A stretch of 64,000 bases of DNA from Candidatus Omnitrophota bacterium. GTDB taxonomy: Bacteria > Omnitrophota > Gorgyraeia > Zapsychrales > JAHFFX01. The notes beneath the pieces are model-generated. The model was not told where the DNA came from and did not search any database. It was given only the letters and a program-made list of their open reading frames with translations. A program made the translations under genes and the position numbers. Shown here one piece after another: positions 39,001 through 63,000 of the stretch (its first letter is position 1; each line of letters begins with the position of its first letter). Where the stretch lies: NCBI GenBank assembly GCA_023247725.1, contig JAHFFW010000002.1:64160-128159 (forward strand). The letters are read 5' to 3'.

Positions 39001-42000
39001 AAGTGATGAGAACCGCCGATCTCACGCCTTCGGGGCGCAGCGAAACGCAGTATGTTCCCGGTTCCAATGCCCGGGAAACCATCCGGTCTTTTGTCAGAGA
39101 AGAATTGTCCCGGTCGCAATACATCCAAGGCGCCGTCCGACGTCTTTCGGAATGGAATTCAAATCCCGAGTTGCGACGGGAGATTCCTTCGGCTATCGAA
39201 GATTTAATTCGACAGGATAACAAACCTGAGATTGTGATTCGCGGTGTCGAACTTTTGGGACGTCTTAATATTCAGCCGGCTAACCGCACGGAAGTAACCA
39301 CCCAATTGATTAAAGCGACTAAGGCTGTCGAGCAAAACCAGAGTTTGTTCTTGGAAGGATTGGAGCTTTTGGAGAAATCCGAAGCCCCACTCAACGCGGA
39401 GGTCCTGGATATCACTTTGACCGGGATAGGCAACGCGCAGCAAACGACCCAGGGTAGATTGATTTATTTGACCAGCGCCCAAATTCTGAGAGAGAAAATG
39501 CCGGTGGTGGCCAGCGATCCCAAGGTCATTGCCAGGCTGGTGGAAGCCGGCTTCAATGAAAATTCTAAGTCCGCTTCTGACGTTTTATTCGCAATGCATC
39601 AAAGGAACTTTTCCGAAGCGGCCCGGCAGGAATTAAGCCGGCAGATTCGCGAACGTGTTCAGAGGGAGCCGAAAGATCTGGGCAAGGGCCTGTCGGTTCT
39701 GGCCCAGTCCGATCCGCAAGCGATGCTGGGCATGCTGGATGAAAACGATTGGCAAGGCCGGCTTGAACCGAACCAAAAGCTGGGTGTGGTCCAGGAGCTG
39801 ATGCGAGTCGCTCCGCAGCGGGCGGTTCCCTTCGTGCGGGAAATGGGCGGGGAAGGACTTGAATTTTTGACGGATGTCATTTCTTCAGGCGTGATCGGCG
39901 GGGAGAAGACCGGAGAGCTCAATGAGAATTGGATGCCGCTTCAGGAAAAAGCGAAAAAATTCCTCGAGGCCCAGCAACAGGCAAGTCAATCCAAGCCCCG
40001 GGAATCTCAGCCTTGGCACAAAAACGTAGCTCAGGCCCCCCAGGAGAAAGCCACGCTGCACCTCACGCAGTATTTGTTCGCCTTGGCGTTGACGAATACT
40101 CAGATGAATGACCTTAAGGATTCTGAACTAGGCAGCCTATTCGAACAAATTTCAAGAGCGGTTGTTACCGCCAAATACGATAACGCTGACTCATCGTTGG
40201 AATTCGGTCAGAAGCTTATTACCCGGGAAAAGGATTTTAAGCAGTTTATGTCGATACTTGGACATGAGTTGGGGCACAACCAAGTTATTGCTTTGTACAA
40301 AAGGTTTGGTCCGGAGGATTACCGGGAAAAAGGGTGGGTTCCCGTTACCAAAGACTTTGGGGTTATCGAAGAATTCGGCGGCGACCTGTTCGCGGCCGAT
40401 TACATCGACAATGTGATGCAGGGCTGGACGAAACAAGACACAAAGAACTTGGTCAATAGACAAGGATCCTGGCTTTCCAGAATCGTCCGGGGAGAGGTCC
40501 TTCAGGCGATGAACCTTAAGCAGGAAACCGAGGAGCATCGTGTCGCCAGAGATTTCTTTGAGCAGATGGAGAAATCCGGACGGAGCAACAAGACCATCAT
40601 GAAGGGCGCTTTCAAACTCCTCATGCCGCGTATGGACGAGGAGATGACGGCCAATCAATTTAAAGCAGAAATGACTCAGCTTTATGATCGGCTAGTGAAG
40701 GATCCGCAGACGAATGTGGATGTCATCATTAATTATGACCAGACCGTAAAGCCGGATTCATCAAAAGACAAGAAAGAGGAGGAGTTTGATCAGGACAAAT
40801 TCAGATCGGAAATGAAATCCGGCGCCCCGGAAGGCTTCGCCCTATACGCTTCCCATCGGAAATATGGAACTGTTATAGGTTATCAAAACGGCGCAGCGGC
40901 AGCCGCAATCCACTTCTTTATATCACCCGCTAGACCAGACAACAGCAAGTTTTTACAACGCGCTAATCGTGAGGCCACGCGGGAATTCTTGGCCTCTCTG
41001 GCCGGAAGCACGAAGCAGGCCGTCAAGGATGCTCTGGCCCGTCGGGAAGTCGTAACGGCCCGGACAAATACATCTTCTCTCATGGGTATGAGAGCCAGCG
41101 CACCTTTCGACGGGGCTATGGTGGAGGAGCAGTCGAGTTCGAAAAGAAGTTCCTTCGATCCGAACGACAGGGAGAATACGTGGGACGTGGGACGTAACCT
41201 GCCCGCCAAACAGGGGACGTGGGACGTATCAGATGCGGCGAAGACGGAGCGCGGGCGCAGTGCCGAGGTCACTTACGAAATGCCTCAACAAACGGTCATC
41301 GAAATGGCGCGACAGGCTCCCGCTGATCGGTTGGCGATTATTGGTTTGGGTGAACTCAGTGAGTCACAGAAGAGCGATCTTAAAAATAAGCTGGAAGCCT
41401 TAGGTGTGGATCGGCCGATCATCGTGGTTAATGACCAGGAAGAGTTATTCAAGGTTGCTCAGCAATCCAAACAAACCGAAACCAACCCGCCGATTGTGCT
41501 GGTCGCTAATAATAGTGTCAACCCTCAGGATGGAAAGGTCCGAGATTTGGTCAGGACCACCAATGCCTGGTTGGGTGGCCACACGACCGATATCCCCCAG
41601 CCCGGCGACAATGAAGGCCGTGAAATTCATTCGATGACCATGCCTACGCGGACCTTGACTCTGCAAAGAAGAGAAACAGAAAAATTTGTCCAGCATAATT
41701 TCTCTTCGGATCAAGAAGCCATGAAGGTCCTTCGGGGCCTTCCTAATTCCCAATTCGAAGGCGTCGATTATGTATTGGTCGTATCCGATGAGGAGTTTAG
41801 CCGGCAAGCAAAAGACCATAACACCTCTGAAGCGGTGATTCTGCACGTCCAGGACCAAGACGGGATCTCATGGGGCGTCATGCTCGTGCCACAATCTGCC
41901 GTGAATGAAATCAAAACCAAACATGAAGAAAATCTTTTGAATACGGCGTCCCAGGATTTTGTCGAAAGCGCGACCAATGAGAACGCCTCCTTTGGGAAGG

Positions 42001-45000
42001 TCTTGGTGGCCGCAGGAGTTCAGGGTTTCAAAGATTTGATGAAGGCGATTCCGGAGGTTCGTTCAGATATTCCTCTGGAACAATTAAAGGAGGATTTAGG
42101 CATCGGGCAGCGTCCGCCAATTCGATCGACTCGTCGGGGACCACAGGAACTGGCCCGTCCGCCGACGGGGCCGACGTCCACGAACTTTTCTCAAGAACGT
42201 CGGCCCGGTCCCGAGCCGACCGAGTCCAGTTCAGTCGGCGAGGGACGAGCAACGGTTGCCGAACGTCCGACGCCTTCCTCTGTTTTAACCGAAGAATCGC
42301 CCGAATTCCAAAAATTTGAAAAGACGTTAATTCCTTTTAAATCCACTCCTCCCGTCGCTGATTTCAATCGCCGTTTGGCTCCCAATATCCTCAAACGACT
42401 CGTTCCTTTTAAGACAACATTTCCTTCCTCAGATAAATTCATTACTCCAAGATTCCGGGCCTTGCCTTCGCCAGCCGCGCTGCCGGCGGTGAGAAGTCTT
42501 TTGCTAAGCCGGCAAACGGGCGTTGCCGAAGGCCAAATGGCTGACGCTCAAGTCGACGACGCTCTAGTCAGCGCTCCGCCGATGACGGAGCGTATCTCCG
42601 ACCCGACCAATAACGCCGCCCGTCGATGGACGTATTGGGATCATGCCACAAAAACGCCATTCCTGGAATTAGTGCGGTATAAGGATCAACCGAAACCAAC
42701 CGCTGAGTTGATGAAGTCTTGGGATCCTGCGTTTCAACAGAGTCAGCTTGATTATGAGCCTAATCAGGCGGAAGTGAGAGGAGAATTCTTAAGTATTCTT
42801 GACGATATTGCTACCGGTAAGCTAAACGCGTCAGCCTTTCCCGCGCGCATGGAGGATTTAAACCGAACAGATTTAATGGGAGCGAAAAGACAGCGCTCCT
42901 ATATGCCATTCAGCTCTTCCTCAAGCCAAGGGCAGGATGTTAAATCGATAGCCGGGAGATACCGGACCTCGGCTCCGGACGCCGCCGAAGATATCCAGAA
43001 ACATTGGAATAACCTTTATGGTAATCTGCAGGAATTTGTTCGGATGTCGGGATCGGGAGATTATTCTAGAGAAGAAATTGTAAAACATATTGCCGAAACA
43101 TATTTGCAATCGATCAAGATTGAATTTTCTGGGGCTTCTTCCACTAAGATGGGTTCGGCACTTCCTTTTATCAGCGGTAATAATTCCATGTTTATGAATA
43201 TGGCCAATGGAATGTTGCGTTTGTCGGACGTAGAGTCTGGGATTTCGCATAAGAATCTCGACGACTATGCATTCCGTTCGGCCGGCAGAGAGTCCGGGAT
43301 TAATGAATTTTTGCAAGAGGTGAAACTCGCAAATCCCGGCTTGGATTTTGAAGAGAAAGTTAGGGTTTATGCAGATGCCGCCAGCGTAACTCCTCCCGAT
43401 AAAAATGCGCAAACAGTTTTCCAACGGCCGACGATAGAAAAAACAAGCACAAACAATTCAGCGAAGCCGGATGCCGCCAGCACGGACCGCGAGCGTGATA
43501 AACAACGGCGGATCATGCGCGAAGATCCGCAATTTTCGATATCGAATGCCCAAGCTCGTATCCAAGAGAAGCCCGGCGTTCAGATGAAGATTCCGGTGGG
43601 AGAATTCAGCGTGGAATATGTGAACACACCTCCTGCTCAAACATCTCCTTCCACGATTTACTTGTTGTCGCTTTATCTTAGTCTCTCCAAGGTGCCCACC
43701 CGGGACGGGGCTTTTCATATGATGGATGTATATGGAAAAGACTGGGCGACGGAAAATCCTCGCCAGGTAAAGACCGAGATTGTTTCTAAATCTGCAACGG
43801 AATGGGTTGGAAAGACCCAAGAAGAGGGATGGGAAGTCGGACTCCCTGGAGCTGTGGCTCAAGGGGTAGCGGATACGGATCTTACCGGAAAGACGGTCTT
43901 GATTGCTGGATTTGGCGACGGGATTCAAGCCATTTTAGCGAAGAAAAAAGGTGCGAAGCGGGTGATCGCTGTTGATAACAATGCGGCGGTTTTAGATTTG
44001 GCTCGTGAAAATACGCGCTTGAACGGCATGGGAGGCCAGATCGAATTTAAGACGGCCTGGGCCGAAGACTTGACGCCGGATGAGATCGGACCCATCGATG
44101 TTCTGGTGGCGAATCTGCCGGGAAGAGTAAGTCAGGAAGTTGTTCCCCCCATCCTAAAGAATTTTCCTGATCTGAAGCAATTGATTTTAGGAGGCGGCGC
44201 CGGGGATTTGGTGGCTGGCAAAACTTATACGGAAAAAGAACTTAACGACCAATGGAAACGCCACATTCCGGATGCGCTTCATCAAGCGATCATCAATCAA
44301 GGATTTTCCGAAGATCAGACGTATTCCTTTGAGCAAGAGGACGGAAACAGGCTCGCCCATCGGTATGAACGTCTTGCATCTGCGTCGGCGGATGCGGCCT
44401 CCGTGAATCCGAGCGACGAAGCGCGCCGGCTGTTGTCTGCCCGGGATCCGGATCGATTCCAACGGCAAACCCCCTCGGAAATGGTGGAAAGAATCGGTGT
44501 GGTTAATCGTTTTGAACTTCTTCCGCAAAGACTCTTCGATGAACCGACACGCATCCTTAGTTATCTGAATCGGCAAAGAACAGTGGAATTCCAGCGTTAT
44601 ACCGTCGAAGAGCTGGAATTGATGGCCCCGCAGCTTACTGAGGATCAGGATTGGCAGCAGCTTAAATCGGGACTTGACCGAGGGGAAATGATCCAAGTCA
44701 CCGGTGTCCTGGCCGAGAAGGTTGTCACTCATTTGGAGGCGAATCGGCTGAACAACTTGGCCATTGATGTGGTTCGAGAAGCAATCCGGAGAAATGGTGT
44801 GGTGGATTTAAAAATTTCTATCCCATTTTTGGAAACGGTGGGCGTCAGTAAAGATCCTCAGTTAAAGCAGACCGCCGATGAATTGATTGACGTGCAGGCG
44901 CGCGCCTTGGGCACTCCGACGGAACTCCGGGATCAAATTAAGGATACCGTCAAAATCATCCGGACCCCACCACTAGATTCCGAACAGGATTCCCGCAATC

Positions 45001-48000
45001 GGGCGTTTCTTACGTTATCCCGATTGATCAACGACCTTAAGGCCAATGCAAAACTGGAACCTGAAGAATATGCCTTGCTTGGAGATCATTTTTTCAATTT
45101 GGGGATTATGTTGAGTCCCAAAATGGATGAGATTCCAATTCGGGATAAGGCCCACTTTGACCACCTTATGATCGACGATGGAAATCTGCAATACCTCGTA
45201 GATTCGAAAATTGTAGATGGCCTTGCTTCCGTAAATGCGGCCCAGGTGACCAGTTTTGACGACATGGTCAACCACCCGCAGAAATTGCTGCCTGTCCTGG
45301 AAGAGGCCGCCGCGGCGGTGGCTCCAGAGAGTCTATATCAAATGGCTCACGATATCGTGAACACTCAGTTGTCCGGTCTGGCAGAGAAATTAAGAGCAGG
45401 TCTTGCCGGAGTTTTGGGCGAACTGCATATAAACCCCCTGGAAAGAACGGATATCATCCTAATTAGTTCGGAAATGCAAGGTGATGAGATTCGTCAACAT
45501 ATCTCTGCAGAAACCGCTCATATGCTGGCCCGAAGGCTCACGTCTCCTATGGAACAACCCCCGGCAGCTTTTCTGGAGGCCCTTGTTGAGAATCGGCCAA
45601 TGAAGGACACGGATCCTGGCGTAGATGAGGCCTATGAGGCGCTTTTGCAAGACTATCTTGGCTATAAGGAAATACTAAGCCCTGCCGAGCAGGAAATCAT
45701 ATCACATATTACCCGGTCTCTGGATCGCATGAGCGACGCCGAATTGAGCCAGGCGTTGGAGCATTACTCGATTAGTGAGGAGGAACAAAGATTTAGAGAG
45801 ACTTTCGGGTTTGCTCAGGATACGCATCCAGTGGATGCCCGGTATAGCCGGGTCACCAATGCTGCCCGCAACAGCGAAGTTGTGCTGACCGATGTTTTTG
45901 AGAAAATGGGTTATTCCGAGCCCCGCAAAATGGCCAGGGAATTTTTGGAGCAAGATCCGCGTTATATTTCCCATGCCGTAGGCAGGACAATGGGAAACCG
46001 AATGGAAGATAAGGTGGATAAGGTCGGCGGGGATATTAAGCTTGCCATTCGGATTGCCGGAGACATGGCGCGGGAGGCCCCGGAATCCTTGCTAGACCAT
46101 CGGGATTTTGAAAAAGAATTCAACCGCCGCGCGGACGATCAAGATTATGTGGCCCGCCTGATTAAAGAAATTGCAGCCAGCGATCGCGAAGTGGCGCTGG
46201 TTCCGGCGTTCACCGCCGACAAGGCCCAGATCGGCACCCCAAGCGACAAAGATCATAAAGTTTCCTGGGAGCAGGAACCCAATCGCGAAGCCGCTGTGGC
46301 GCGTTCCTCTCAACAGAGTGATGCCGCTCAGGTGAACCCCAGAGAAGAAAGTTCTCAATCGAATGAACGGACCCCGGAGAGGGATCAGGTGCTGAATGAA
46401 AATGGGGAAGACAGCGTTCATGTAGGGGGTCTTCTTGCTGCTCCGCACCGGGCGGTGAATTTGCGAAGTTCATTGATTAATCTGTCCAGGCAGGCTGATG
46501 CACAGCCAGACTTCTTCAGTTCGGTTCTGAACAATACGGAAAAAATGACCGTGCATCCGGAAACCGCTTATGAATTCGTGAAGTGGATTACGCAAACGAA
46601 ATACGATGTTAATAAATTGCCAAAGATCTCAACGGCGATTCAAAAGATAAGACGATCCAAAGAAACGATCAAGGATTTACTTTCCGGTGAAGATTCGATC
46701 GTGAAGGTGCGGATGGCAGCGGAGATCATGAAGTCGGCCCAGTCGGGCGCGAATCAGAAAAGTTTTAAGGACCTCCTTAAGTATTTTGGAGAATTAAAGC
46801 AATCGGGCGTTCTTAAATCCGAGGATATTGAGCGGGCCATTCGGCTCGTCGCAGGACACAATCCAGCTCAGTTGATCGCGGCGGAGGCCACCCGAACCTA
46901 TTCTCAGGAGGACAATATGCCGGCCCTGCGGGAGTTGGCCGCCAGACATAAGGGAGAAATCCAGACGATCCCGCAAGCGGATCTGGTTGCGGATGCGAAC
47001 CGTGAAAAAGGGACTTTGATCGTTGGAGGAGAAGGCAGTGGCAAATCCACGCTGACTTATGCCCTGGTGAAGAAAGGATTTAATTATGGCGGGCAAGGCA
47101 TGGATATGCTGCGGACCGGTTCTCATCTGATTGCCGGCGTGAGCCAAGAGACTAGGTCCTATCCTCTCGAGTTTCGTTCCGGTGAGGCGGAGCCTGGCGA
47201 TCTCACCCGGGATCGTCCGGTCGAGACCATTCCGACGGCGCCTCGATTCGTGCCGGTTAGAGTGATCGTTCAAATGTTGAAAGCGCCTCAATTAACGAAA
47301 CCGGAGACGACCATTCGTAAGGCGACGGATACCGAAATCGCCGGATCCAGGGTTGCTGAGACCTGGAATTCCCTGAATCGTCCGTCGGTCGATTATCTGG
47401 TGGAAGTCCGGATGCCAGAAAAAGTGACCGATGAACAGATGGCGGTGGTCGCCCGCGATATCATGCGCGCCGACGCCGCGATGGCGGTGAGATCGCACAA
47501 TGAGGATTCCAATCCTTCCTATAAGCCCACGAACCAGACGGCCCAGACTAGGCCCTTTGACCTTACCGAGTTGACCAACCAAAAGATGGCGCTGCGGGAT
47601 ATCGAGCTTCAGAATTTGAATTTCCGGCCGCGGCGGTACGATGACCGGCGCGACGGGATGGTTGATTTCAATTTAAGCAGCGCGATGAATGACCAAAATC
47701 TTTCTGAACCTGCCGATGAGATTCCGCTTGCCGAACATCCGACCCTAGGCCTGGTCGCGCTGGCGCAAGTGGATCATTTTGTTATGGTGGAAGCCAGTCC
47801 CAGTCAAACTATCGGAATTTACTCTCAGGAACATGTGATCTGCCTGCTGGGCGATATTCGTGCGGAAAAGGTCTATGCGGACGGCCATCGGGAGACGATC
47901 GTTATTGGACACGCGCACATCAATCCGAACTCTCCAGCGGACCGCAGCGGCCAGAAGGGGCCGGCCTTCGCCAAGTTTGAGAGAGTTCTGGACTACCTCG

Positions 48001-51000
48001 GACAAACGCATCGTGACGCCTCGGGCCAAGAGTTCAAATTCGAAAACATTCAGATGGCTCTGGATATGGATGGGGAGTTCCGCGGCCTCGGTTCCAGAGA
48101 AGCGATTCTCGAGGCGGTCCGCCAGCGGAACATCACGGTCGTGGCTGAACGTGTCCGTGACCGGAATAATCCCAAGCAGGAGGAAGCCGATTCCTTTGTC
48201 AGCGCGCGCTATGCGGTCGTCGGCCATCATCCGGAGAATGACCGGACTTACGATATCCATCCGGTTATTTGGCAAACTGCCGCTAACGATGCGGGGAGTA
48301 CCGAACGCAAGCAGTCTATGTCTTTGACTACATCGGCGGATCTGAGAAGGATTGCCGAAACGCGACAGGCCGAGAGGACCCACCTTGCTGGTTCAGTGAT
48401 AGCGGCCTCAAGCCAGCGCCCGCAAGAAATTATGGCGGCGTTCGACGCCGCCTCCGTCGGCGTGCCGCGCGAGGCCTGGAAAATCACCTCGGAAGTCGAA
48501 ATCTATAGAGAGCAGATCGAGCGTTATGCGAAGATAAGAGATTCAATCGCTTCCGGAGATCTGAAAGTTAACCAGCAATTAGTCGGGACGATTTTGGGCG
48601 CCTTCCAGAAAGCCAGGGCCGAGCAAGAACCCACCGTCAGTGAATTGACCGATCTGCTGCGATTGGCGGCGCAAAAGAATTCAGCTGCCGTCCCGGCGGC
48701 GGAGGCGAAACTTGTTATTGCTGAGGCCGAACGGCAGGCGAAAGTCCAACTGGTGTCCCCCATCGCGACGGCTAAACCCGCGGCCAGCGTGTCGGCGCCG
48801 GTCCAGCTTTCTTTGTGGAACGAGGAGCCACCACAACCAAAAGCCGAGCAGTTATCGCTGCTGGATTTCCGGGAGGGGATAGAGTTAATGAGGCTATTCT
48901 CTCGAAAAAGGGACGTGGATCGCCAAGAGATCTTGGACACCGCGCAACGGATCCTCAGTCGAGAGCAGTACCAAACTTTTGTCAGTAGGATTGTTCCAAG
49001 AGTCGACCAATGGGCTGCTGGGAATTTTAAAAGGGCAAATTATAAGCTCGTCTATGATGTCCTTACGGATATGGTCAATCGGAAGGAACCGCGGAGCGAA
49101 TATGAATATATCTCCGATGAAGACATCGCAAATACTCTCAAGATCCGCAGAGATTACAAGGAAAAATTGCCAGGAATTCTCCAAAGCACCTTGGAATCGG
49201 AGAGGACGAGATTAAAGAAACTGGGCGTGGTTGGCGTGGAATTGATTGGGACCGCTGCTCAAGATCTTGAGACATTGCAGGTAAATTTTTTCTCGGCTCT
49301 TCATGATGCGTTCGGGAAAGCGGGAGATATTAAAGAACTCATTCCTACCGTGCCCGCAATTCCTGGCGTTTCTCCTGTGGTCATGGTTTCTGATGCTCCG
49401 GTGGGTATCAGGTTCTTGTTGCCTGACGCCGCCTCCGTCGGCAGCCAGCGCGAGGAGAAGGAAACGACTTCCAAGACGGAAACCGACCGGCCGGATTCGG
49501 TCTCTGTCGGCGCGCCGCAGCGAGAAGCTAGTCATATTGCCGATCGGGATGAACTTCCGGGTTCACCCAAGATCCCTCGGAGATCATTTTTTACTGCGAT
49601 AGCGGCGCCTTTCGTTTTGGCATCATCGGGGATCAGGGACCGTGCCCAGGATACTCGGGAGCGGCTGCGAGAACAGGTGCAACGTTTGCGCCAGGCCATG
49701 GAGCGGTTTAACAACAACACTAGAGCGATAAACAGCGCCAATACCATGGCTTCGGCTCTTCAAAATCGAAGATTAGCGGACAGCTATTCCCAGGCGACCA
49801 GAGAAATAGGATCAAGCAAACTGCTGGATAACGATATGGTACGCACCAGCCGGGATGAACTCGTTATTTCCGTGGGTGATCATTTTACTGAGGTAGGGCC
49901 TAACGATCAGCTCCTGATCATCATCTCCGGGCCTGCGGCGCAGATTTGGAGTGTCGTTCCAGGACTGGAGAATGATCGGCAGGTCCGTTATGTGCCGCTG
50001 ACGGTCGACCAGGGCCTGAACAATGAACAGAATATGCGCGAGCTGATCGACATCACTCGCTATTGGGGATATTCGGGCCAAAGGCCATTGGAGGATTTTT
50101 ATCGGGATCGTCAGAGAGAAAGTACAGATCGACGGGTTTTGATGGTGGGTCTGGAAGAATTTGGTTCCGGGCCCCGGCAGGACCGTAAAGAGCAGGCCGT
50201 TAAGCAGTTGGATGAGCTGATTAAGGACTACAATCCGTCGAGCATCCTTTACCTCGTCAATCAGACCGATCCGAATGGGCTGGTGAATACGATCCGCGGG
50301 CAGCGACAAGCCCCCAATTCCATCGAGGCGTTTCTTGCCAGGCAGTACTTGAAAGGAATCAAAATCGGGGTCAACAATTTTAACCGGCCGTTGGGAGACC
50401 TTTATTTTGCGGAGCCGGGGGGAAGATTCAGGTTCGCCCCGGAGACGCCCTACCAAAAGCCGCGCTACATTCAAATACCGGCGTCACAAAGAAGGATTGC
50501 GAGAAGAGACGCGTTCAAACTAGCGATCCTCGATTTGGCAAATGTCGATCGACAAGAGCAAGCAAGGATCCGTTTCGCCGAACCGAATACTGCTACGCAG
50601 GCGACGGCTCGCTTTAGTGTTCCTTCCGACTCCGCGATGGCGGAGAAGGCGACAACGAACGGATTGCCAGAAGATGCGGATCTGAGGAGGCGTGCCGAAG
50701 AGCGCACGATTTCCGAAAGGCCGACGGTGGAACAAGCCGGCGCCCGGATGATTCAACCCACCGACCTGTCCGGCGTAGCCAAACGCGCCGTGCCTGCCGG
50801 CAGGCAGGAAAGCAATTCGGCGAAGCCGGACGCCGCGATGGCGGAGCGGCGTGATGGTGAGTCTCTGCCCATTTCCGAGAGACCGTCGATAGATCAGGAA
50901 ACCCCGACCAAATTCGACATTCACTTTGCCTTCGATAATTTTCGTAAGCTGCCTTCGCATGTGCGGGAAATCTCGGATCAAATTGGGCAATCCGATATTG

Positions 51001-54000
51001 TGGTCGTGCAAACTCCCGAAGTATTCGACGAAATTTTTAATGCGGTTTCTCACGGCCTGTCTCCTGCCGAGGGGATGACGGCCATTCAACAGAAGGCTCA
51101 AGAAGAAAGAATTCAACTCAATTTGGATTCACCCCTGAAGGCCTTACTCACGGCGATCCATGGGTCCGGGAAAACCATTGTAGGTAATCGTCTCCCCAGT
51201 GACCGGATTCGGTCCTCGAATGAGGAAGCGTTTACCGAAATTACCCAGGCGCTGAACCGGGGTATCACCAGAGGCGACATGAGAAGCGCGGTCAAGAGTT
51301 ATAAAATACTTACCGAAAAGATGGGTGCGGCGACGGCGGAGCATGGCAGAGACATGGTGGCCACCATTCAAAAGGTTCAGCAGCAATTTCCCGATAAGAA
51401 GAAGATTTTGGTCATCGACGGGCAATCCAATACCGCCCCCTACATGAATTTGACGCTCAACCAGGATCTATCCTCCCAGCAGGGTGTTGCTCAAATCACG
51501 CGGGAATTTTTGGATAATCCTACAACTCCGGTGGTGTTCTCTCTGGACGACGCCCTCAAGTGGGATATCGCATTTCAGGAATTGAAGATTAAGCCGGCAA
51601 AAGAGTTGAGCGATCAGGACGTCATTCCGGCGCTGGTTTCATTGATATTGGTGAATTCCATCCCCGAGTCTCAGAGAAGTGAAATCGATTTTGCTGGGAT
51701 CAACAAAATCGCCATAAGAATTGATTCGATGGATAAGCTTTCTGGACTGCAGCGGGAAATGCAGGCGCATCCGATAACGAGTCACGAAGATTTCCAGAGT
51801 AGAGTTTACTTCTGGCTGGTGAAGGGAGATTTTGCCAGACCAATGGAAATTAAGCGGGTTCTGGGTTTTGACGCCGCGATGGCGCAGCGGCGCAAAGAAG
51901 ATTCGACCATTTCTTATGAACCGACGCAGACAGAACAAACGGCCACGGCCCGGCACTCCGACGCCGCGATGGCGGCGCGATTGCAAAGCCGGGATTTAAC
52001 GACCGCCGATCCGACACAGGATCAGTCGGCAGTTATTGCGAGCCGCGCGATTCAAAACGACCTTGAGAAGGCTTTACGGGCCATTGGGCATATTTACAAG
52101 TCTAGTGATTCTGAGGCGCTTTCTAAGATGTCCTTGGATCTCGTCAAGAGCGCAGTTTTCAATGAAGTTTATGGGGCGTCGCCAGATCATTTTATTGCCG
52201 CACTTTCTCTCGCGGAGTCGCCGGCCCGCAACTGGGCTACCGCTTGGTTAAGGCAAAGATATAATGCTTACGGTCGGACTGAGATGTTCCGGTATCCTTC
52301 TCAAGACAGGGAATTCGAAGTCGCTTTAGGTACCCTGGAACAAAAGCCGGCGCCGTTTAAGGCTGTATTATTGGGTTCATCAAACGGAGATGACCCGGTG
52401 ACCAAGGCCTTGACTATGGGGGATCACCCGAACTTGCAAGGGCGGCGCATTGATGTGGTGGGTGTCGACATCAGTGCTCAGGCGATCGCGAAAGCAAAAG
52501 AAAATCTGCAGTCAGGCAAATTCCGGATCGATGCGGAATATATCCAATATCTTTTCGAGTACGAAGGTTTCAATGCGCTTCCGGAGGCCATCAAGAGCAG
52601 ATTGGCGCAGGGCGGAGATGTCTCCGAACAGATCAACAGCTGGATCGCTGAGCGGTTGCCCGCCTTGCAACAGGAAATCCGTTTCGTAGAAGCCAGTATT
52701 CTCGAGGAAGCGTCTTGGAAAGAAGTCCGAACTGCCGATGCGGTATTCATCAACTCAATTTTGTATGAAGTTCCTAAGTCGGCTCAAGCTGAGTTTTTCG
52801 AGGGTCTGAAGAGAAACATGAAACCCGGAGCTTTCTTATTCTTATCGACCGATTACTTTAGGGATGGCGAGTTTGAAAGTAGTTGGTTGGATAAAAAAGC
52901 TTATGGGGTCTATCAGGTCAAAGATGCCGCGATGGCGCAGCGGCGCAAAGAAGGTTCGACCACTTCTTATGAACCGACGCAGAGAGAACAATCGGCCACG
53001 GCCCGGCACTCCAACGCCGCGATGGCGGCACCGCGCGAGAAAGAATCGACAACTTCCTATAAACCGACGGAGAGCGAATCATCGGCCGTGTCCGCGAGTC
53101 GTTTGGTGAAATTGACACCATCTGGTATCCTGAAATTCGCGGCCAGAGTGGCGCCGACGAGGGACTTGCGCGAGCGCGTCATTCAGGGATTGGGCGCGAA
53201 GGCCTTAGCATCGTCCGCACCGGCGACTAGGGCGCTGCGCCGGCTGGCTCAATCGCAGCGGCCGCAGATAGCGCAACCGGCTTTTGACCAATTGCTGGCC
53301 AATGTCCGACAGGGCCATTACCGTTCAGTTGAAGAATTGGTGAACCTGGCGGAGCAATTTAGGGTCAGCGATTTAATGAAGGAATTTTCGCAAGCCACGA
53401 TTGGGCTTGGTGTGGCCGGGCTCGATCGACAGCAAACTATTTCCGACCGTCATTGGTCTCAAGTTCTGGGTACTGGAAGTTATGGCCACAGGGATCATAT
53501 TTTATGGCTCGCGGAAAATGTTACAAATGATCCTCGAAGACCGCAATTGGCCGAGGCCACGATGAAAGCCCTCGAAACGCTGGCCTTAAGAGGGCATCCC
53601 GATGCGATTTCGGCGTTGAGTCAAATGGTCAATTCATCTCATCCACAACAAGCCGAGCGGGCGCAAACCGTCCTCGCGATGGCGGCGATCAGCGGACACC
53701 AGTTGGCTCAATATGAAGTGGCTAATAAGGTTGAAGGCGACCCATTCATTTTAGAAAGAGAAGAATTCATGCGGGCTAATAGAGCTGTGGCCCAGATCGT
53801 GACAGAAATCGTTTCGGATCGCCGCAAATTGACTTATCAGGAGGATGAAGTGAATCGCCGGGGTGATTACACGGGCAGAAAGACGCCCCGGTTTGACCAA
53901 TCGGTCCATCGAGATCTCATGGAGCAGATTAAACGTGCCATTGTTCACGGAACGCCGCAGGGCCAGGCGCTCGCCATTCAAGCCTTGGAGCGCAGCGGCA

Positions 54001-57000
54001 TCCTGGAGGACCCCTCTGAATATTATTATTTTCATTTGGAGCCGGTCGTGTTGGCCGCTGCGGCAGGTTCGCAGCCGGCGATTGATTTGTTGGGGAAGGA
54101 ATTGGCGCGGCAGGGCGCGAGATTAGAACAGGATTACTACCGGAGTAGAGAAAATGATTTCCGTTTGAACAAACAATACGATCGACAGAATTGGGAAAAC
54201 ATTCTGGATTTATTTGCCGTGGGGATGCGATATCCGCAATTGCGGGGACAGGTCTTGCCAATTCTGGAGAGGGCGATTGCACGCGGCGATGAGAAGGCCT
54301 TTGCCCTGGTTCGTGACAGCATCCGGGCGTTATTGTCTGACTCCGCGAGTGTCGACCGGCAAAAGAATCTGCCCATTCCGCTGGCGGATGACCTAAGCAC
54401 GATATCCGGCAACCCGACGGAAGCGGTCGCCTGGGTGAAGGCAAATGAAGCAACCCTCAAATCCGACCGTGAGATTCCACCGGGCGCCATCCGGTCTCCT
54501 CCGACGGAACGACGCGAAGCCTACGCCATTGATAACACGATTCCCCAAGAATATATGGACTTACGCGATCGTGATGACGTTCTTCAAGCAATTCGTAACG
54601 CGGCCGATGTCGTACCCCAGCCCCAGCCTGCTGAAACCATTGCCCAATCAAGAAGTGTTCCGCGGATTGAGCTGCCACCATTTCGAGAAAATCCTCAACG
54701 GATAGAACTTCCGCCCTTCCGCGAAGACTATCAACCGCAAAGACCACCCACATTCCGTTCTGAAGAACCGAAATTTTCTCAATGGACCAAGTGGTTGGTC
54801 AGGGTTGCGGGCGTTGCTACGGCTCTTCTCGCGTTTCAATTGAATCAGGAAATACAACCGCCTCCGCAGTCCCCGCAGGGACAAGTTGTTCCGCCAACAC
54901 CAGCAGATATTGCCAAGAAACGGGAAGAACTCCGACTCTTCAGTAAAATTCCGCCAGCACCGTCGACAAAACCCGGTACGAGTACGAACGGTCCAACAAC
55001 ATCCGAAAACAAGACGAAGGAACCAGGCGCACCTTCTTCTACCCCAGCCGAACGTGGCCAGCCGTCTCCCGGGGTCATTACCCCGCGCTTACCGTTGCCG
55101 GATGGTGTCTTTCCAGAGGTCAGAAGGATGTTTCCACAAACTCCGGGACAAGAAGGGCGAGGACCAACTTCTCCTTCCCGGCCTCAAGAACCTTCTTCTC
55201 AAGAAAGGGAACAAACTTCTCCTTCCCAGCGCGGCGCGCCTTCTCAGGGAGCCGGCAATCAACAAGGGACACCGGCTACCGGTGACATCGTGATCCTGCC
55301 CGTTCGGCCTTTGACCCCACAAGAACAATTGTTCTTGAATTTATTCGGGCTTGAAAAGAAACAGCCCGAGAAACCTTCGGACAGCAGAACTCCAGGCGTT
55401 GGGGAGGGGCGGATCGTCATTGGATCGATGGAATTCAAGTTTCGCCTGCCCACGATCAGCCGCGGTGACCGCGGTCCGGCGGTGCGGACGCTTATGCGAA
55501 TTCTGAGAGTGGTGTTTGACGGCGAGGATGGCATTCGGTCTCTTGCGGGCAAGACGAATCCGCTCACTGGCCGACCTTATGATGAGGAGTTTGCCCGTCA
55601 AGCCTTACAGCTATGGCAAACAGCCCGTCGAGACAGCGAATCTATTGAGGAATATACCGCCAATGTGGAACGAGCGATTGTCGCCCTCCAAAACGCATTC
55701 GATATTAGAGAAGACGGTGATGTAGGGCCCGAAACCTGGAGTTTACTCGGTGAATTGCTGGAAGCATACCAGCGCCTCATAGAAGAGCGCCAGAAACCGC
55801 GGCAAGTCGCTTCTCTGGAAGGTTCGATCAATACGTTGTTGGAGTCCATGGGAAGTCCGTTTCGAGTGCCGTCCAATACGGATCAATCCACCGATGCTGC
55901 AAAGCTGGAGACCCGACAGGAACAAGATTCCACAGTTGCAAGACCCACGGAGCAATCCAAAGCCCAAATGATTCCGTCCTCTGATGCCGCGAGTGTTACT
56001 TCGAATGAAGCGGATCGCCAAGAGGATCGAATGGGTAAACCTGATCAGTTGAAACAGGGTATTTCTACACCCAAAGATGAAATAATTGAGCCAGAGTATA
56101 AAAAGTCGCCTTTAAGAGGGTTTGCCAAGATGTGGAATCAGTTCCGAAATAGAAGGCTGGTGCCTTCCAAATCTTCTACAATTGGACCTCATTTTCCGAC
56201 GATCTCCCCCACACTATTGCAAATATTCCATCTTAGTGCCTTACCTTCCTCTAATAATACGCCGGTTGGAACTGATGAACGCGATCGTGGTTCAAAGAAC
56301 GGCGCGTTGCCAGCACCCCCAACCCTTCCTGCCCCATCGGAAAGCACCTTGCCTGAGCCGCCAGGCAATAGTGGATCAAGTGGTGGTTTTGCGAAGGCAA
56401 CCAGCGCTATTGTTCAGTACGTAAAAAGCCTAGCCTCTAAGGATGAACATCTAAATTCTGAAATTATCAATAAAGAACAGGAAAAAGGTAGCCAATGGGA
56501 GCGTCTTGCCTCCCGTAAGGACCCAACGAGCAAATCAGGCGTTGGACCTTGGAACATTAGAATGCTGTCCGCCATTTCCGCAATGGCGCAGACAGCAGTT
56601 AGGAATGTAGGAGCGCGGATAACAAAAATTGGAAGCAGTGTTGTCAATGCAGTTAGCAGTTTCTTTGTAGCAGAAGCATACGCAGCAGAAGTAGCAGGTA
56701 GTGAAGTAACACGTAGCACTGTTCTGAATGCAGCAAAGCAAGTAGGTAATGGACTCAATTTGGCTGAAAATAGTTCCGGCAACGGGGCTGCTAAAGCTGA
56801 AGAGAGATCCTTATCGGTGGTTCCCGGAGTGCGGCGAACGACAGTTCGTGCAACCGGTAGTAGGGTAGTGAATGTAGAACCCTCTAATCGCAGTTTGGTT
56901 AGAGTTATCGTCAAGTTAGCACAGGCAGTAAAAGCAGTAGTCAGAAGCAGAAGTACGAATAAGCAGTATCGCTCTGTCTATGGCAATAAGGTTGCTGAAA

Positions 57001-60000
57001 CCGGATCTGCCATTGATGAAAGTGCAGTAGAAACACCGAAGTATCGTTCTCATCGCATCATCGGTAATGCGGTTAGTTTAGTTGAAGCCGGTGCCCGTTA
57101 CACGGTAGCGGCCATAGCTCAGATTATCCGCAATTCCAAGGTTCTTAGAGTGTCTGTTCGTAAGAATGGACAATTTAAGAATAAAGCCTTAGATTCCGAG
57201 ATCGATGGCAGTAGAAGTAAAGCTCAAGCCGTAACGTTAGGCTTTGAGCCGTATCGTTCTGGTAATAGAGAAGCAGGTAATAATCTCCGGTTCGCAATAG
57301 GTCTGGTCTTGGCGAAAGCCGTGACTGGAGCTAAAGCTGACTTGAGAGCGTTATTGAAGGTTCTTGGAGTTTATCTCGCCGAAAGGCTGGAAAAGGTCCG
57401 AGAAAAAATCTTTGGTTTTGCTGGTTCCCTCAAGGTCCGTATCAATCGAGTTGGGGCGAACGTCGGCCGGCAGGCCAGAGAGGGTTCTGACAAGCGTGTC
57501 AGCCATGGCACGGCTGCAGTCTTTACTGGCAAGTTCAGCAGTGTTGCAAGTAGGGTAATTGCCCTAGCAATAGCTAGGATCTTTACGTTACTTACAGTTC
57601 TTAGAGTCCGCCTGGCAGAAGTAATCAAGGTACAGGCTGAAGCTGAGAATAGCTTCTTGGAGTTTGCACTCTCTACCTTTGATAGTGGTAGAGTCGACGC
57701 ATTAGAGACTTCAAGAGACACTGTTACTAGTCGTAGAGAAGATGAACGTGGTTCTCAGCGTAATGTTCCAGTGGTGGAAGCAGTGGAAACTGCTGAAGCA
57801 CTGGCATCTGAAATTCTCGGAGTGCGTCAAGGTGCTGAAAAAGACCGAAATGCGACCGGGAATTCCGACGTTACCGGGAACGTAATTCTTGCTCAGCAGG
57901 ATCGTTCAGTTGGTGGAACTGGCAACGAAGTCAACCTTGCTGAAGCTGTTAACGTTAACGCCCTCATGGGTGATCGAACAACAGCCGCAGCAAGCAGTGC
58001 TTCCAAGCCTGAGAATTTCGGAGTGCGATTGGCCAAATGGCTCAACGTGATCCGAGAGTGGTTTTTGAAGACTGTCCCCTCGAGCCTAAACAGGATCGAG
58101 GTTAAAGCTTTAAGAACCAACCGCAAGACCACCAATAAAAATGTAGCTCCAATTGTCAACACTGAAACGAATACGTTCGTTTCAGTGGCTTTGCAAACTC
58201 TGTCTGTCAAAGTTCGCAATGCAAGAGAACTTTGGCAACGGAGAAAGTCTGTTTCTGCAGTCCAAGAGTTGATCTCTACTCAGATTTCCAACCTACGTCG
58301 TCTCATTCAAACCCTCAAAGAATTCGCTAACGTTCAATCAGTTCCTAACCAAGGAGGATTCCCATGGACAAGAATATTCGTTTTGACCATTTTGTTGAAT
58401 TCACTAAGAACGACTGCCTCTTTTGCGCAGGCCGTCAACCGGGCAGCAAACGTCGAAGTTTATACCTCATCGTTAACCACACCGGCCGGGTCTATGAACG
58501 ACATTTTAATAGCTGGCGCCTTGTCGATTCTGATGCTGAGTCTCATATTCGCCGCGAGGCCGAGAGCGCCAAGCTCGGAGGTGTCCCGTGTTACGTCACA
58601 CACAGCCACTTCAGCAATTAATCCTGCCGCAAGTATTCTTTCTGCCGCTTCATTAAGTAATCCTCATCGTGTAACGATTGATCAATCATCCATGTTTGAT
58701 TCTGCCCAAGTTGAATTGCTCCCCAACATTCAGGCCCAATTGGCCTACCTGGCCTTGAATGGTCAGAATGCAACCTCGCTGATCGATACCATCCTCACTT
58801 CAGAAACCGGAGACACCACCCAAGCCGAAAATCTCCTTCGGCAACTTCAACGTAATGCCCAAATGAGGCCTAGCGATGATGTGTTAAAGCCGTTTATTCT
58901 GTCGAGAGTCCACAGCATTAACCTAAAAAATCCGACCAGCAGCGACTTGAAATATATGATTTGGGCTTCCCGGAGAGGTTACCGTTTATCAAATGAGATG
59001 CAGAACTTAGTTGGCCGGGCCACAACCCTAATTGATGATGACGAAATGATGAAGGATTTGGCCGTGCAGATTTTGCCCTTTATGCGGGGTGCAGCGACCG
59101 AGCGCTTGGTCGATGTGCTCCGCCCCGAAGGTGTGGTTCGTTTCCTGGCTAGCGATACCATGCGTATCGTAGGCATCCAAAGGGGAGAGGTTTTGCCGGA
59201 ACGTGAAATTCTCGAAGTCATTGCGCTCAGAGTCAAGCGGGGTGTTTATGATCGAGATGCCTTAAAGGCGGAATTTGACCGGCTTTATTCCAGTGATTCT
59301 CAGCAGAATTTATTGGAAGGCATCTTTGACCGGAATATGGATCGTTTGGAAGCTCTGGCGAAGTTGCTCGAGGAAGATGAAGAAGATAAAGAACAGCAGC
59401 GCATCTTCTTCAAACCGGAAGATGACTTGGTCGGCTTGACGGTGCGTTTGCGCGAAGCGACGGTGGTGCAAGATGAGGACGCGCTTCAACCTGGTCACCA
59501 ATTCGACCAAGATTTATTGCATCGCCGCTTAAGGCGGGAAGGACAGCTGGAAATTCATGACCTGGAGCGGCAATACAGCGAATCCCTCAAAGAATTGGAC
59601 AAAAATTATGCCAATCGTCACACCAATGACAGCCAGAAGAAGGCCTACAATGACGATAAGAAAGATTTGGACAAGTGGCTGACCGAACAAAAGCGCCAGG
59701 CGAAAATCCGCCGTCAGTTGCAGGAACTGGGATTTGCCTTGCACACTCACAAGATCGTGCAAGGGGATCTGAGGCTGTTCCGCCGATCCTTGGGAACGAT
59801 GGTCTATGACGGTCTGTTTGTCGGTGAGAAGGACATCCTGGCGCTGTTGAAGAAAGACGTGGATGTTATGGACATGATGGCGCAATGGGATACCTTAGTC
59901 GATCCAGCGCAGCGGAAAGAATTTTACCGAGATTTCATGATCGCTCCGATGATGGCCAACCGCGGCCAATTTGATGTGAGCCAATTGATTCTCCGGTTGT

Positions 60001-63000
60001 CTCATCCGCAGCATATGACCTTGTATCTGGAAGATCATATCGAGCTGGTTATTCCGGCTCAGCAAGCGCAAGTTGAGAATGATGCCCAATTCATCCGCGA
60101 GCAGGCCCAAGTGGCGGTTGTGCCTGGCGAAACCAATGAAGACCTGGGGGACATTGCTTCCAGCCGGGGAGGACGAAAACTCATGCAGTCGCTGCCTCTG
60201 CCCAACGGGAATGTCTGCGTGGCCTCCATGCCCGAAGAAACCGCCCGCCGCGGGTTCAGGTCGGCCGGTGACCTCGAATGGGGCCTGAACCGATATCGCA
60301 TCATTAAAGATTGGTTGAAGCACACCTTCGGCCGGCCGCGGATCACGCAATTCATCAGCCCGCGGGGGCAGGAAGCCCTCGCGCATGCCGTGCGCTCCTC
60401 TAATCCTCAACGCACCCTGATGATGATCAGCGGCTTCGCCGGGGCAGTGACCAATGATATGCTGGACGAGTTACGATCGGTTAATTTCGCAAGTACCAAT
60501 AATGTGCGCACGATCCTGACGGTGGAGGCCATCTTCGACGCGATCCGCGCCGATCACGAAGAACCACGAGACCGGGCCAGGCTCGAAGAACTGCAAGAGC
60601 ACTATACAGAATATGTTCAATCCATTTCGGATCCGAGCTCAGATTATTTAAAGACTCAAACAGCCTTTGCCAACAGTTGCAGTGCGGCGGCAGATGCCAG
60701 CGATAAGGCTTATGTCGCTTACCGCCAACATGCGGATGGGGTGAAAACCCAGGGAAGAATCTTTCAGCTTTTGGCGATTGGGAACATGACGGTTAAGGAT
60801 GCGGTCGAACTGATGGAAGATACCGACAGCAAGGGTTATAAGGCCATCCAGGAAGAAGTTCAATACGATCTCGATAATCGCAAGACCCAACGTGGCGGCA
60901 AGCTGGTCAAATTCCGCGCCAGGGCCATGGCGGCCATCCGAGCTCAGAGAACGTTTGGATTCTATATCAAGAAATATGTCTTGGTCCCGCTGGCCGTTCA
61001 GATTGCGGCCATTGTGGTGCTTTATTTAGTGTTCCATGTCATCGCCGTCATGGCTGCAACATGGGGGGTTGTCCACCTTTCCTTACTGGGTTTTGAAATT
61101 GTCACCATCAATTTCGCTGAGGCTCTGACCTTCAGCCACGTTGTTGCATTCAATCCGATAGACAAAGCCCAAGCCATTCTACCGTTTATTCTCTCGGTCG
61201 TCTTGCTCATTGCCCGTCACGAATACGGCCATGATCTGCACGCCTTCATGGTGGGTGATCCTAATAAACAAGGAACAAATGAACCATCTCTTTGGAATTT
61301 ATTTAAGAATATTCCGCAGTATATAAAACCAATGAATCTTTTCGGGATGGTCTTCTTTGGCGGTCTGGGACAGGGCGGTTCGACGACCATTAATCCCAGA
61401 GTTATGAGGAACAAAGGATACCGGTTTGTCGCTTTAGGTGGACCGTTATTCAACATCCTGGGCGCCTTGAGCGGACTTATCCTTTGGGGAGCGATGAGTG
61501 TATTGGGTCACTTTGTGACCATCCCGGCCTTGATCATCTGGGGGACTAAGATCCTGATCCTGGTTGACCTTTACTTTGTTATCCCCAACCTCATTCTGGC
61601 CATCTCGGTCAAACTTCCGATGATGGGCGACTTGACGTCGGACGCGGCCCATATCTACTTCGGCAAAAAAGCCGTCATGAATGAAGACAAAACAAAGAAC
61701 CACATACCGTTCTGGTTTAAGATATTCAGCTGGGTTCTACTCGCCGGATTCTTCTATTTCCAATATGCTCATTTTTATCGTTGGGTTAGTGCCATTGGGG
61801 CCCGCATGGGATTGACGGCGATCAATCTGCCTGCCCTCCAAATCGCCGCAGCCGGCTTACCGTTGAAGGAAATCATGATCGTGATTGGCATTATTCTCTT
61901 GATCGCGATGGTGGTCAAGCTGAGGCACGGAGAACCCGGAAAAGCTACTGCGATATTTTCGTTGTTCGGATTGTGCGTCGGGATTTATCTCCTCATCGGT
62001 TCAAACCAGACGTTTACTGTCGGCGCGATGGTGACTGGCTTTATGAAAATTCTGGCAGCTGTTTCTACGACCTTCTTGACCATTGGAATCGTCCTCGCCT
62101 TGGCCGTCCTCATCGCTCAATGGGCCTCGAAGCACTCCTCACAAATTAAAGTGAAGGTCACCCGGGTGTTGCTGATCCTCGGGGTCGTGTCCGCGCTCTT
62201 AGGCGCTAGCGGAGTCCTCTATCGGCTTCATGCCGCCGGAGAGCCGGTACAGTCTTCACAGACAACGGTTGTTCAGCCTCGCGCCCCGCCGCCAGGGGGC
62301 ACCACCACGCCGACACCCGCGGCCGCCCAACCACCGGCTCCGGCGACGCAAACCACGCCGACCACGCCGGCGCCTGCCGCTCAATCGTCACCCGCGCCGG
62401 TCGCCGGGCAACCGGTCCAGCCGGCGGGAGCCGGGACTCAAGCTCCGCCGTCTCCGACGACACTACAAACCACCCAGCCGCCGGTTGCAAATCCGCCGCA
62501 GGCTCCGGATGCCGCGCAAGCGACTGCGAGTTCAGCTGCTGGCCAGGCCTCAGCCCCAGCTCCAGTGCCCCCGCCACCCGCATCCGGCCAGGCCTTTGCT
62601 TCTGCGGGGCCGCAAGGCTTGCCAGATCGCACTGATTTATTGATCGTTGCCGACACCGCGAAACTTTCGCAGGATCAAAAGGATGCTCAGTCTCTGCACA
62701 TTTATACATTGGATGAAATCATCTGGAAGTCAGTGGAGAATCTGAAACGCCGCGCGCAAGCCCCGGACGCCGCAACGAAGGATGCTGCCGCCGTCACCTT
62801 GGCCGGGGCTCTGGAGCCCCGCCAGCTGTTCTTTGGGAACGTGGAAAACGGCCGGGTCCTGATGCTCAAGGTTAGCGATGAGCCCAAAATGATCTTCTTC
62901 GACAATACTCTGGCGGCGGCCGGCGATAAAGCGGGGGTTGATCCTGCCAAGCGGGTCGATATCACCTATGTTAATCTAACCCGCGATAATAAGGTGTGGT

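Follow-up and report, generated by a model that had tools for sequence, protein, structure and literature searches.

Probable recent copying of a linker unit next to a CheR-like methyltransferase module in a giant Omnitrophota gene

We analyzed a 64,000-nt stretch of contig JAHFFW010000002.1 (assembly GCA_023247725.1, Candidatus Omnitrophota bacterium), referred to here as the window, in which a CheR-like methyltransferase module stands between two nearly identical short direct repeats. The repeats consist of units of a family that we name after its DAAMA peptide motif. In the reading that we favor, at a probability of roughly 0.6, the protein is giant and anchored in the membrane, the DAAMA units are low-complexity linkers between the folded modules of its soluble part, and one linker unit was recently copied, non-reciprocally, between neighboring linkers by gene conversion or template switching. 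On this reading, the copied part is the linker; the methyltransferase is the module between two neighboring linkers and need not have moved. As an instance of intragenic repeat homogenization in a modular mega-gene, the locus is modest but well documented, on the evidence of one sequence. Its most intriguing element is an invariant 12-nt core at the junctions.

Frame 3 of the + strand has no stop from end to end of the window (3..63998, 21,332 codons) and is open on both sides, so the window covers only an internal part of a giant gene; each of the other five frames contains 470-1203 stops. The features on which the argument depends are the following.

3..63998, + strand: single uninterrupted open reading frame (ORF), 0 stops in frame 3; contains all other features
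51870..51976, + strand: repeat copy 1, made up of unit a1 (90 nt, DAAMAQRRKEDSTISYEPTQTEQTATARHS) and 17 nt from the start of the unit that follows (DAAMAA core); GC 64.5%
51873..51884, + strand: core GCCGCGATGGCG (AAMA; GCC GCG ATG GCG), the same 12 nt at 8/8 intact sites
51960..52049, + strand: unit a2, DAAMAARLQSRDLTTADPTQDQSAVIASRA, diverged, with 59-60% nt identity to a1, b1 and b2; predicted local distance difference test (pLDDT) values of 43-58
52020..52922, + strand: CheR-like two-domain S-adenosylmethionine (SAM)-dependent methyltransferase, N-terminal helical domain and Rossmann domain (Pfam, AlphaFold, Foldseek)
52923..53029, + strand: repeat copy 2, made up of unit b1 (DAAMAQRRKEGSTTSYEPTQREQSATARHS) and the 17-nt core of the unit that follows
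53013..53102, + strand: unit b2, NAAMAAPREKESTTSYKPTESESSAVSASR, in tandem with b1, older copy, 69-70% nt identity to a1 and b1

The two repeat copies (51870-51976 and 52923-53029) are identical at 101 of 107 positions (94.4%) and form the strongest self-BLASTN match in the window, with an E value of 1.9e-41. A 28-nt piece of the repeat occurs exactly twice in the window, against 0 occurrences expected from shuffles, and the longest perfect block common to both copies is likewise 28 nt. The copies start 1053 nt, or 351 codons, apart and share one reading frame, in which they encode DAAMAQRRKE[DG]ST[IT]SYEPTQ[TR]EQ[TS]ATARHS[DN]AAMA. An initial annotation of this DNA had described direct repeats of ~110 bp and ~90% identity that encode a DAAMAQRRKE...ATARHS[DN]AAMAA linker, and had named self-BLASTN as a check. 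Over its somewhat longer spans, 102 of 112 positions agree (91%), both copies translate as it described, and the pair is the top self-match.

The edges of the repeat are informative. Inside the block, identity in register is 29, 28, 28, and 19 per 30 nt. Upstream it is at the random level (4-11 per 30 nt), and the left edge is razor sharp. Downstream it falls to random within ~60 nt, and the right edge coincides with the end of the next DAAMA core. The 107-nt block of identity is thus exactly one unit plus the 17-nt core of a second.

The repeat unit belongs to a wider family. The peptide [DN]AAMA occurs eight times in the window, and an iterated hidden Markov model (HMM) recovered 11 units, starting at 16935, 29895, 31455, 38154, 47472, 50685, 50829, 51870, 51960, 52923, and 53013; a further unit of the family starts at 41232. 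A unit is 30 codons long, running from one DAAMA motif to the next, and the family consensus is DAAMA-x-R-...-S-[EY]-x-P-T, in which S-[EY]-x-P-T is a second motif. Each methyltransferase junction carries a tandem of two units with 90-nt spacing (a1-a2 and b1-b2), and other junctions likewise hold one or two. At the DNA level, pairs of 90-nt units are 49-61% identical (random expectation 45±3%), with the exception of a1 and b1 at 94% and of either of these against b2 at 69-70%. From this matrix of pairwise identities, the relationship of the units appears to be nested, as ((a1,b1),b2) and then the rest. Tandem Repeats Finder, run on 50.5-54 kb, returned nothing, the tandem pair b1/b2 being too diverged.

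The six differences between a1 and b1 comprise one synonymous and five non-synonymous changes. The proportions of differing synonymous and non-synonymous sites (pS 0.039 and pN 0.063) give a pN/pS of ~1.6, which, with 6 substitutions, is a weak estimate. Between a1 or b1 and b2, pS is ~0.30 and pN ~0.33. From these patterns, the body of the linker unit appears to evolve about neutrally, without constraint on the peptide. Because the changes look neutral while some 25 synonymous sites have mostly been kept, the 94% identity of a1 and b1 points to a recent common origin and not to selection on the peptide.

A different cause of the likeness would be function, if the linker peptide or its RNA were kept alike for a sequence-specific job such as docking, an A-x-A-like 'AMA' protease site, or an RNA element. 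DAAMA and S[EY]xPT are indeed conserved across the family, and the 12-nt core is kept even at synonymous sites. Moreover, one giant-gene study describes proteolytic processing of giant Omnitrophota proteins as suspected, with no cleavage points known (10.1101/2023.11.21.568195). However, five of the six differences change an amino acid (pN/pS at least 1), and a constraint on the peptide would not keep synonymous sites over 107 nt. RNA-structure z-scores are ~0 on both strands, with no Rfam match, and no protease domain was detected in the window by Pfam. Functional constraint may account for the core, but not for the 94% block, for which we regard it as very unlikely. We find it hardly credible that the pair is an artefact of assembly or polishing in which mixed reads from similar linkers homogenized two regions. 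The source is evidently the assembly of an uncultured organism, and other repeats in the gene include some with 100% identity. The two copies nevertheless differ at six scattered positions, the frame is kept, and the ORF is uninterrupted over 64 kb. Moreover, polishing can homogenize two sequences only if they closely resembled each other beforehand, and even then a real repeat would have to be present.

The segment between the repeats encodes a recognizable enzyme fold. With the 351-aa cassette searched alone, the Pfam CheR SAM-binding domain (PF01739) matches residues 137-325, or nt 52278-52844, with a score of 30.9 bits (cutoff 27), and Methyltransf_25 reaches 35.7 bits (cutoff 27); the CheR score drops to 22.2 bits when the cassette is placed inside a 4,999-aa chunk. 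An AlphaFold (AF2) model from alignment A2 is confident at residues ~51-351 (nt 52020-52922), with pLDDT of 78-97 over residues ~51-330, and low in both linkers. In a Foldseek search of the PDB, ranks 1-8 are all CheR structures (including 5y4r, 5xly, 1bc5, 1af7, and 5ftw) and span both CheR domains, with 320-335 aligned columns, template modeling (TM, target) scores of 0.47-0.60, and E values from 1e-7 to 5e-6. In alignment A2, the invariant residues R141, G173, A209, and F272 are present in the cassette, as are the near-invariant T137, G169, G198, D290, F293, and G320; position 175 is D where the consensus has E. The second repeat begins exactly where the fold is completed by its last strand, YGVYQVK. 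The initial annotation had stated that the repeats bracket exactly a CheR-like module, and the Pfam span, the confidently modeled fold, and the Foldseek matches agree with it: on the model, the repeats bracket one complete CheR-like module that is probably functional.

In comparison with CheR (PF01739; PDB 1AF7, 1BC5, 5XLY, 5FTW), the module has the two-domain fold and keeps the F-R motif, the G-x-x-x-G SAM loop, the acidic residue after strand 2, and D-x-x-F-x-N. It is, however, only 13-17% identical to CheR in structural alignment and no more than 31% identical to any protein. Furthermore, CheR is a stand-alone enzyme of ~280 aa that acts on chemoreceptor glutamates and is encoded beside che and methyl-accepting chemotaxis protein (MCP) genes, whereas this module is internal to an ORF of more than 21,332 codons, without chemotaxis genes or receptor domains in the 64 kb (Pfam found no MCP or Che domains there).

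An exhaustive HMMER search of 1.84e9 representatives returned 13 matches at E <= 1e-3, the best of them 28-31% identical. All 13 cover query residues ~64-360, that is, the module and never the linkers. Half are classical CheR proteins. The remaining matches form a subfamily with the motifs 'SLGASTGxEA...FLNxVLYQ', located inside other large multi-module proteins. Among these are a protein from an Elusimicrobia metagenome-assembled genome (MAG) with three tandem copies and a 6,383-aa ORF, here L121, which fills a 19-kb contig from JGI sample 3300009444 and whose CheR-like module is of the closest type.

A segmental duplication of modules as the source of the repeat pair is rejected: neither flanking module is related to the cassette, nor are the two related to one another. 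A foreign origin of the cassette is not supported, its GC content (48.9%) and its GC content at third codon positions (GC3, 53.6%) being ordinary for the gene, at the 14th and 36th percentiles. A transposable element with a target-site duplication was also considered and rejected: there are no inverted repeats at the ends, and only methyltransferase profiles match the segment, with no recombinase. A duplication of 107 nt is also far longer than typical target-site duplications.

The structure could also have arisen if the methyltransferase, together with one linker unit, had recently been inserted into an existing linker, creating the flanking duplication, with the reverse reaction leading to loss or duplication. 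Such an insertion would proceed by recombination at linker or core homology, either as a Campbell-type integration of an excised circle or as unequal crossing-over with another copy of the gene. The in-frame direct repeats, 351 codons apart, do abut the ends of one autonomous fold. The nearest relatives of the module, such as those in the Elusimicrobia MAG and in the 6,383-aa ORF, lie in different multi-module giant ORFs of other lineages, which shows that over evolutionary time it does get shuffled. In addition, the flanks of two perfect repeats elsewhere in the gene (50 nt and 31 nt) are unrelated on either side, a configuration reached more easily by insertion than by conversion. Against this, there is no paralog or donor of the methyltransferase in the 64-kb window and no relative above 31% identity among the 1.84e9 representatives. 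The composition of the cassette is ordinary for the gene, it has neither terminal inverted repeats nor a recombinase, and no structural variants were retrieved from the genome, metagenome, and viral collections. Unit a2, which heads the cassette, is an old, diverged resident member of the linker family and suggests that the module has long been in place. We therefore consider a mobile cassette unlikely.

Copying of a linker alone would require two steps. In the first, the unit downstream of the methyltransferase would have been duplicated in tandem to give b1 and b2, which are now ~30% diverged. Much later, b1 would have been copied, core to core, into the junction upstream of the methyltransferase to give a1, now 5.6% diverged. 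In this second step, b1 could have overwritten an older unit by short-patch gene conversion; alternatively, template switching could have occurred twice, at identical 12-17-nt cores, with a net insertion of 90 nt. We infer both the mechanism and the direction from b1 to a1, the latter because b2, the nearest relative of both copies, is the tandem neighbor of b1. It is plausible that an older unit was already present at the recipient site, since other junctions hold one or two units. Copying of this kind accounts for the sharpness of the left edge, for a right breakpoint located at the core, for the equal 90-nt spacing, and for the unrelated modules. Since the modules on either side show no relationship, the pair is not what remains of a module duplication, and the copying would have been confined to the linker.

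Several considerations weigh against this account. It draws on one sequence, and the pN/pS estimate for a1 and b1, with its 6 substitutions, is weak. Gene conversion normally needs flanking homology, and the left flank offers only a 15-nt core. The right breakpoint would fall at the core by chance roughly 1 time in 5. Finally, integration of a module carrying one linker copy would yield the same final structure.

These results bear on the broader proposal of the initial annotation, which had taken high identity in linkers against 'diverged' modules as a sign of recent or ongoing recombination with module gain, loss, or duplication. Recent copying between linkers at the DNA level is upheld by the single synonymous change beside five non-synonymous ones and by the 49-61% identity of other unit pairs. 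The modules, however, are not diverged but unrelated, so there is no sign of module duplication. Gain, loss, or duplication of modules is possible, and the a1/b1 pair could now serve as an in-frame direct-repeat substrate for precise loss or tandem duplication of the methyltransferase module.

The 12-nt core of the DAAMA motif requires separate consideration. Its eight sites (29898, 31458, 47475, 50832, 51873, 51963, 52926, and 53016) are all on the + strand and in the same frame, and the 12-mer GCCGCGATGGCG is found nowhere else in the window on either strand. From the gene's own codon-pair usage, the expectation for these codons is ~0.046 per site, or ~2e-7 for five further independent copies. 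Around the core, unit sequence has diverged to near-random identity. The codons of the second conserved motif (P-T) and of conserved arginines vary freely, and three units with a decayed peptide motif (DAAKA, DGAMA, DAAKT) differ in their codons too. Because the core codons are invariant against this background, the core appears to be maintained at the nucleotide level, by recurrent homogenization or by selection on DNA or RNA. With a core at either end, the copied block is bounded by perfectly matching stretches of 12-17 nt, and the core may act as a microhomology anchor. Two candidate roles were rejected. By reading the sequence upstream of the eight cores, we found no consistent Shine-Dalgarno-like sequence that would make the conserved ATG an internal translation start, and an RNA element has neither an Rfam match nor folding support (z-scores of -0.15 to +0.46, ~0 on both strands).

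A bolder interpretation, which we hold to be distinctly improbable, is that GCCGCGATGGCG is a dedicated junction signal, either a hotspot of recombination or template switching or an A-x-A-like processing site of a polyprotein. If it were a hotspot, linkers and modules could be copied, swapped, lost, and gained in frame, and the gene would have a built-in shuffling grammar for its growth. If it were a processing site, the giant polyprotein would be cut into module-sized enzymes. Either version would bear on questions that the giant-gene literature raises, namely how domains are incorporated and where the products are cleaved.

The following features of the same ORF, and one set in L121, complete the picture of linkers and their repeats.

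11568-11653 and 12783-12868: repeat pair, 86 nt, 92%
22363-22412 and 24517-24566: repeat pair, 50 nt, 100%
24485-24515 and 25445-25475: repeat pair, 31 nt, 100%
near 26.2 kb: TPR stretch (Pfam)
38167-38206 and 41245-41284: repeat pair, 40 nt, 92.5%; DAAMA-family units
47472..47564, + strand: DAAMA-family unit (HMM iteration, codon listing, repeat families D2, D5, and D7)
50685-50747, + strand: partial unit, upstream of unit 50829..50921
50829..50921, + strand: upstream unit, DAAMAERRDGESLPISERPSIDQETPT, which marks the start of the unrelated 347-aa module preceding repeat copy 1
L121, 5643-5693, 6282-6332, and 6942-6992: junction motif, ~650 nt apart

The four additional repeat pairs of the ORF are short, direct, sharp-edged, and 92-100% identical, and they lie in linker-like, low-complexity, GC-rich segments. 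L121, which is unrelated to the giant gene, has a junction motif of its own (AAGLPA..QAGM, 81-84% nt identity) at successive module boundaries. Given these other sharp-edged repeats and the L121 motif, copying between linkers looks like an ongoing or recurring process in such giant genes.

Some of these repeats have further structure. The repeat at 11568 and 12783 encodes IA[ND]ER..SASPAVDGA.VTDHQQKIALS and has a third, weaker copy ~2 kb on, at 14828-14933; the three appear to form another linker-like family with sharp edges. The middle copies of the 50-nt and 31-nt perfect repeats abut at 24485-24566, where the translation reads …PASHPGGEKV followed directly by APTDGNGAGENGSGART…, with unrelated flanks on all sides. 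Since two perfect patches abut there, this linker appears to be a mosaic of two other linkers. At 19532-19732, just after a transmembrane-like segment at 19257, there is a tandem 81-nt (27-codon) repeat, VEPIHSPIGTEL.APTAPDSS.., in ~2.5 copies of ~82-89% identity. An old module duplication relates 30135-31265 to 44796-46205 (29% identity over 301 aa and 37% over 93 aa). Both duplicates are followed by a DAAMA linker (31455 and 47472), and these two linkers are only 54% identical in DNA, in contrast to a1 and b1. L121 contains two module duplications, with 71-73% nt identity.

As for the giant ORF at large, Pfam recognizes sparse domains in it: TPR, PrmA-like, and CheR-like methyltransferases, with HEAT and PG-binding below threshold. 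The PrmA-like module, a second methyltransferase unrelated to the first, lies at ~43875-44165 in the same ORF (34.3 bits, cutoff 22). There are 15 transmembrane-like segments, at ~19.3 kb (19257), at ~25.2 kb, and in a cluster at 57.5-63.1 kb. This cluster consists of 13 hydrophobic segments (57543-63132), has no Pfam match, and may be the membrane anchor of the giant protein; the repeats and the methyltransferase sit in a long soluble stretch between transmembrane-like segments. No homologs of 50829-54500 or of 60000-63998 were found among 5.8e9 protein clusters, and on these two regions the giant gene appears to be an orphan. No loci related to the cassette were found in genome, metagenome, and viral collections. 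Searches for the pattern core-N60-90-core in metagenomes and for an extended core in genomes gave only chance matches in GC-rich genomes, and a tblastn comparison of the complete giant protein with 239 retrieved loci produced no meaningful match.

Among known systems, streptococcal alpha C/Rib and staphylococcal SD-repeat proteins are size-variable surface proteins with in-frame intragenic repeats. They resemble the present locus in that in-frame direct repeats within one gene are a substrate for RecA-dependent or slippage-mediated deletion and duplication. However, they contain long tandem arrays of identical units, whereas here two short dispersed repeats surround a unique enzymatic domain. 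The closest described process is gene conversion in modular polyketide synthase (PKS) genes and the associated GRINS (PMC8256042). There, too, high DNA identity between paralogous positions of a very large modular gene is ascribed to non-reciprocal copying rather than to protein conservation, and in both cases copying is proposed to speed remodeling. The present case differs in that a disordered linker rather than catalytic domains is involved, the flanking modules are non-homologous, and there are no PKS domains. GRINS are defined as sequences of >500 bp that are >80% identical within one gene cluster and have mean absolute GC skew and absolute TA skew both >0.15 (Nivina et al. 2021, PMC8256042). 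The repeat described here is not one of them: the block is only 107 nt, identity is random outside it, and GC skew is -0.04 and -0.01 (TA skew -0.42 and -0.37).

The gene as a whole resembles the Omnitrophota 'Archaeovorin'-type giant ORFs (West-Roberts et al. 2023), with more than 21,000 codons, sparse methyltransferase, TPR, and weak HEAT domains, and transmembrane clusters separating soluble stretches. Pfam domains are, however, much scarcer in it than in the published cases, and the likeness lies in general architecture alone, no sequence homolog having been found for 50829-54500 or 60000-63998. The giant-gene papers (10.1101/2023.11.21.568195; 10.64898/2026.06.07.730766) list methyltransferase, HEAT, and TPR among common domains, analyze tandem nucleotide repeats and repeated Pfam domains, and leave domain incorporation and cleavage points as open questions. 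When the two papers were searched for the terms 'linker', 'recombination', and 'gene conversion', none of these occurred, and no passage describing dispersed repeats of a linker with a constant DNA core came up.

The wider questions here are how a bacterial gene of tens of thousands of codons comes to be built and reshaped, and whether its product is processed. This locus offers a concrete, datable example of what is probably non-reciprocal copying confined to an inter-module linker, and with it a linker family whose 12-nt core stays constant even at synonymous sites, the remainder of the unit apparently drifting neutrally. If the pattern generalizes, giant genes would have their recombination joints in the linkers, and DAAMA motifs would be candidate module boundaries or cleavage points.

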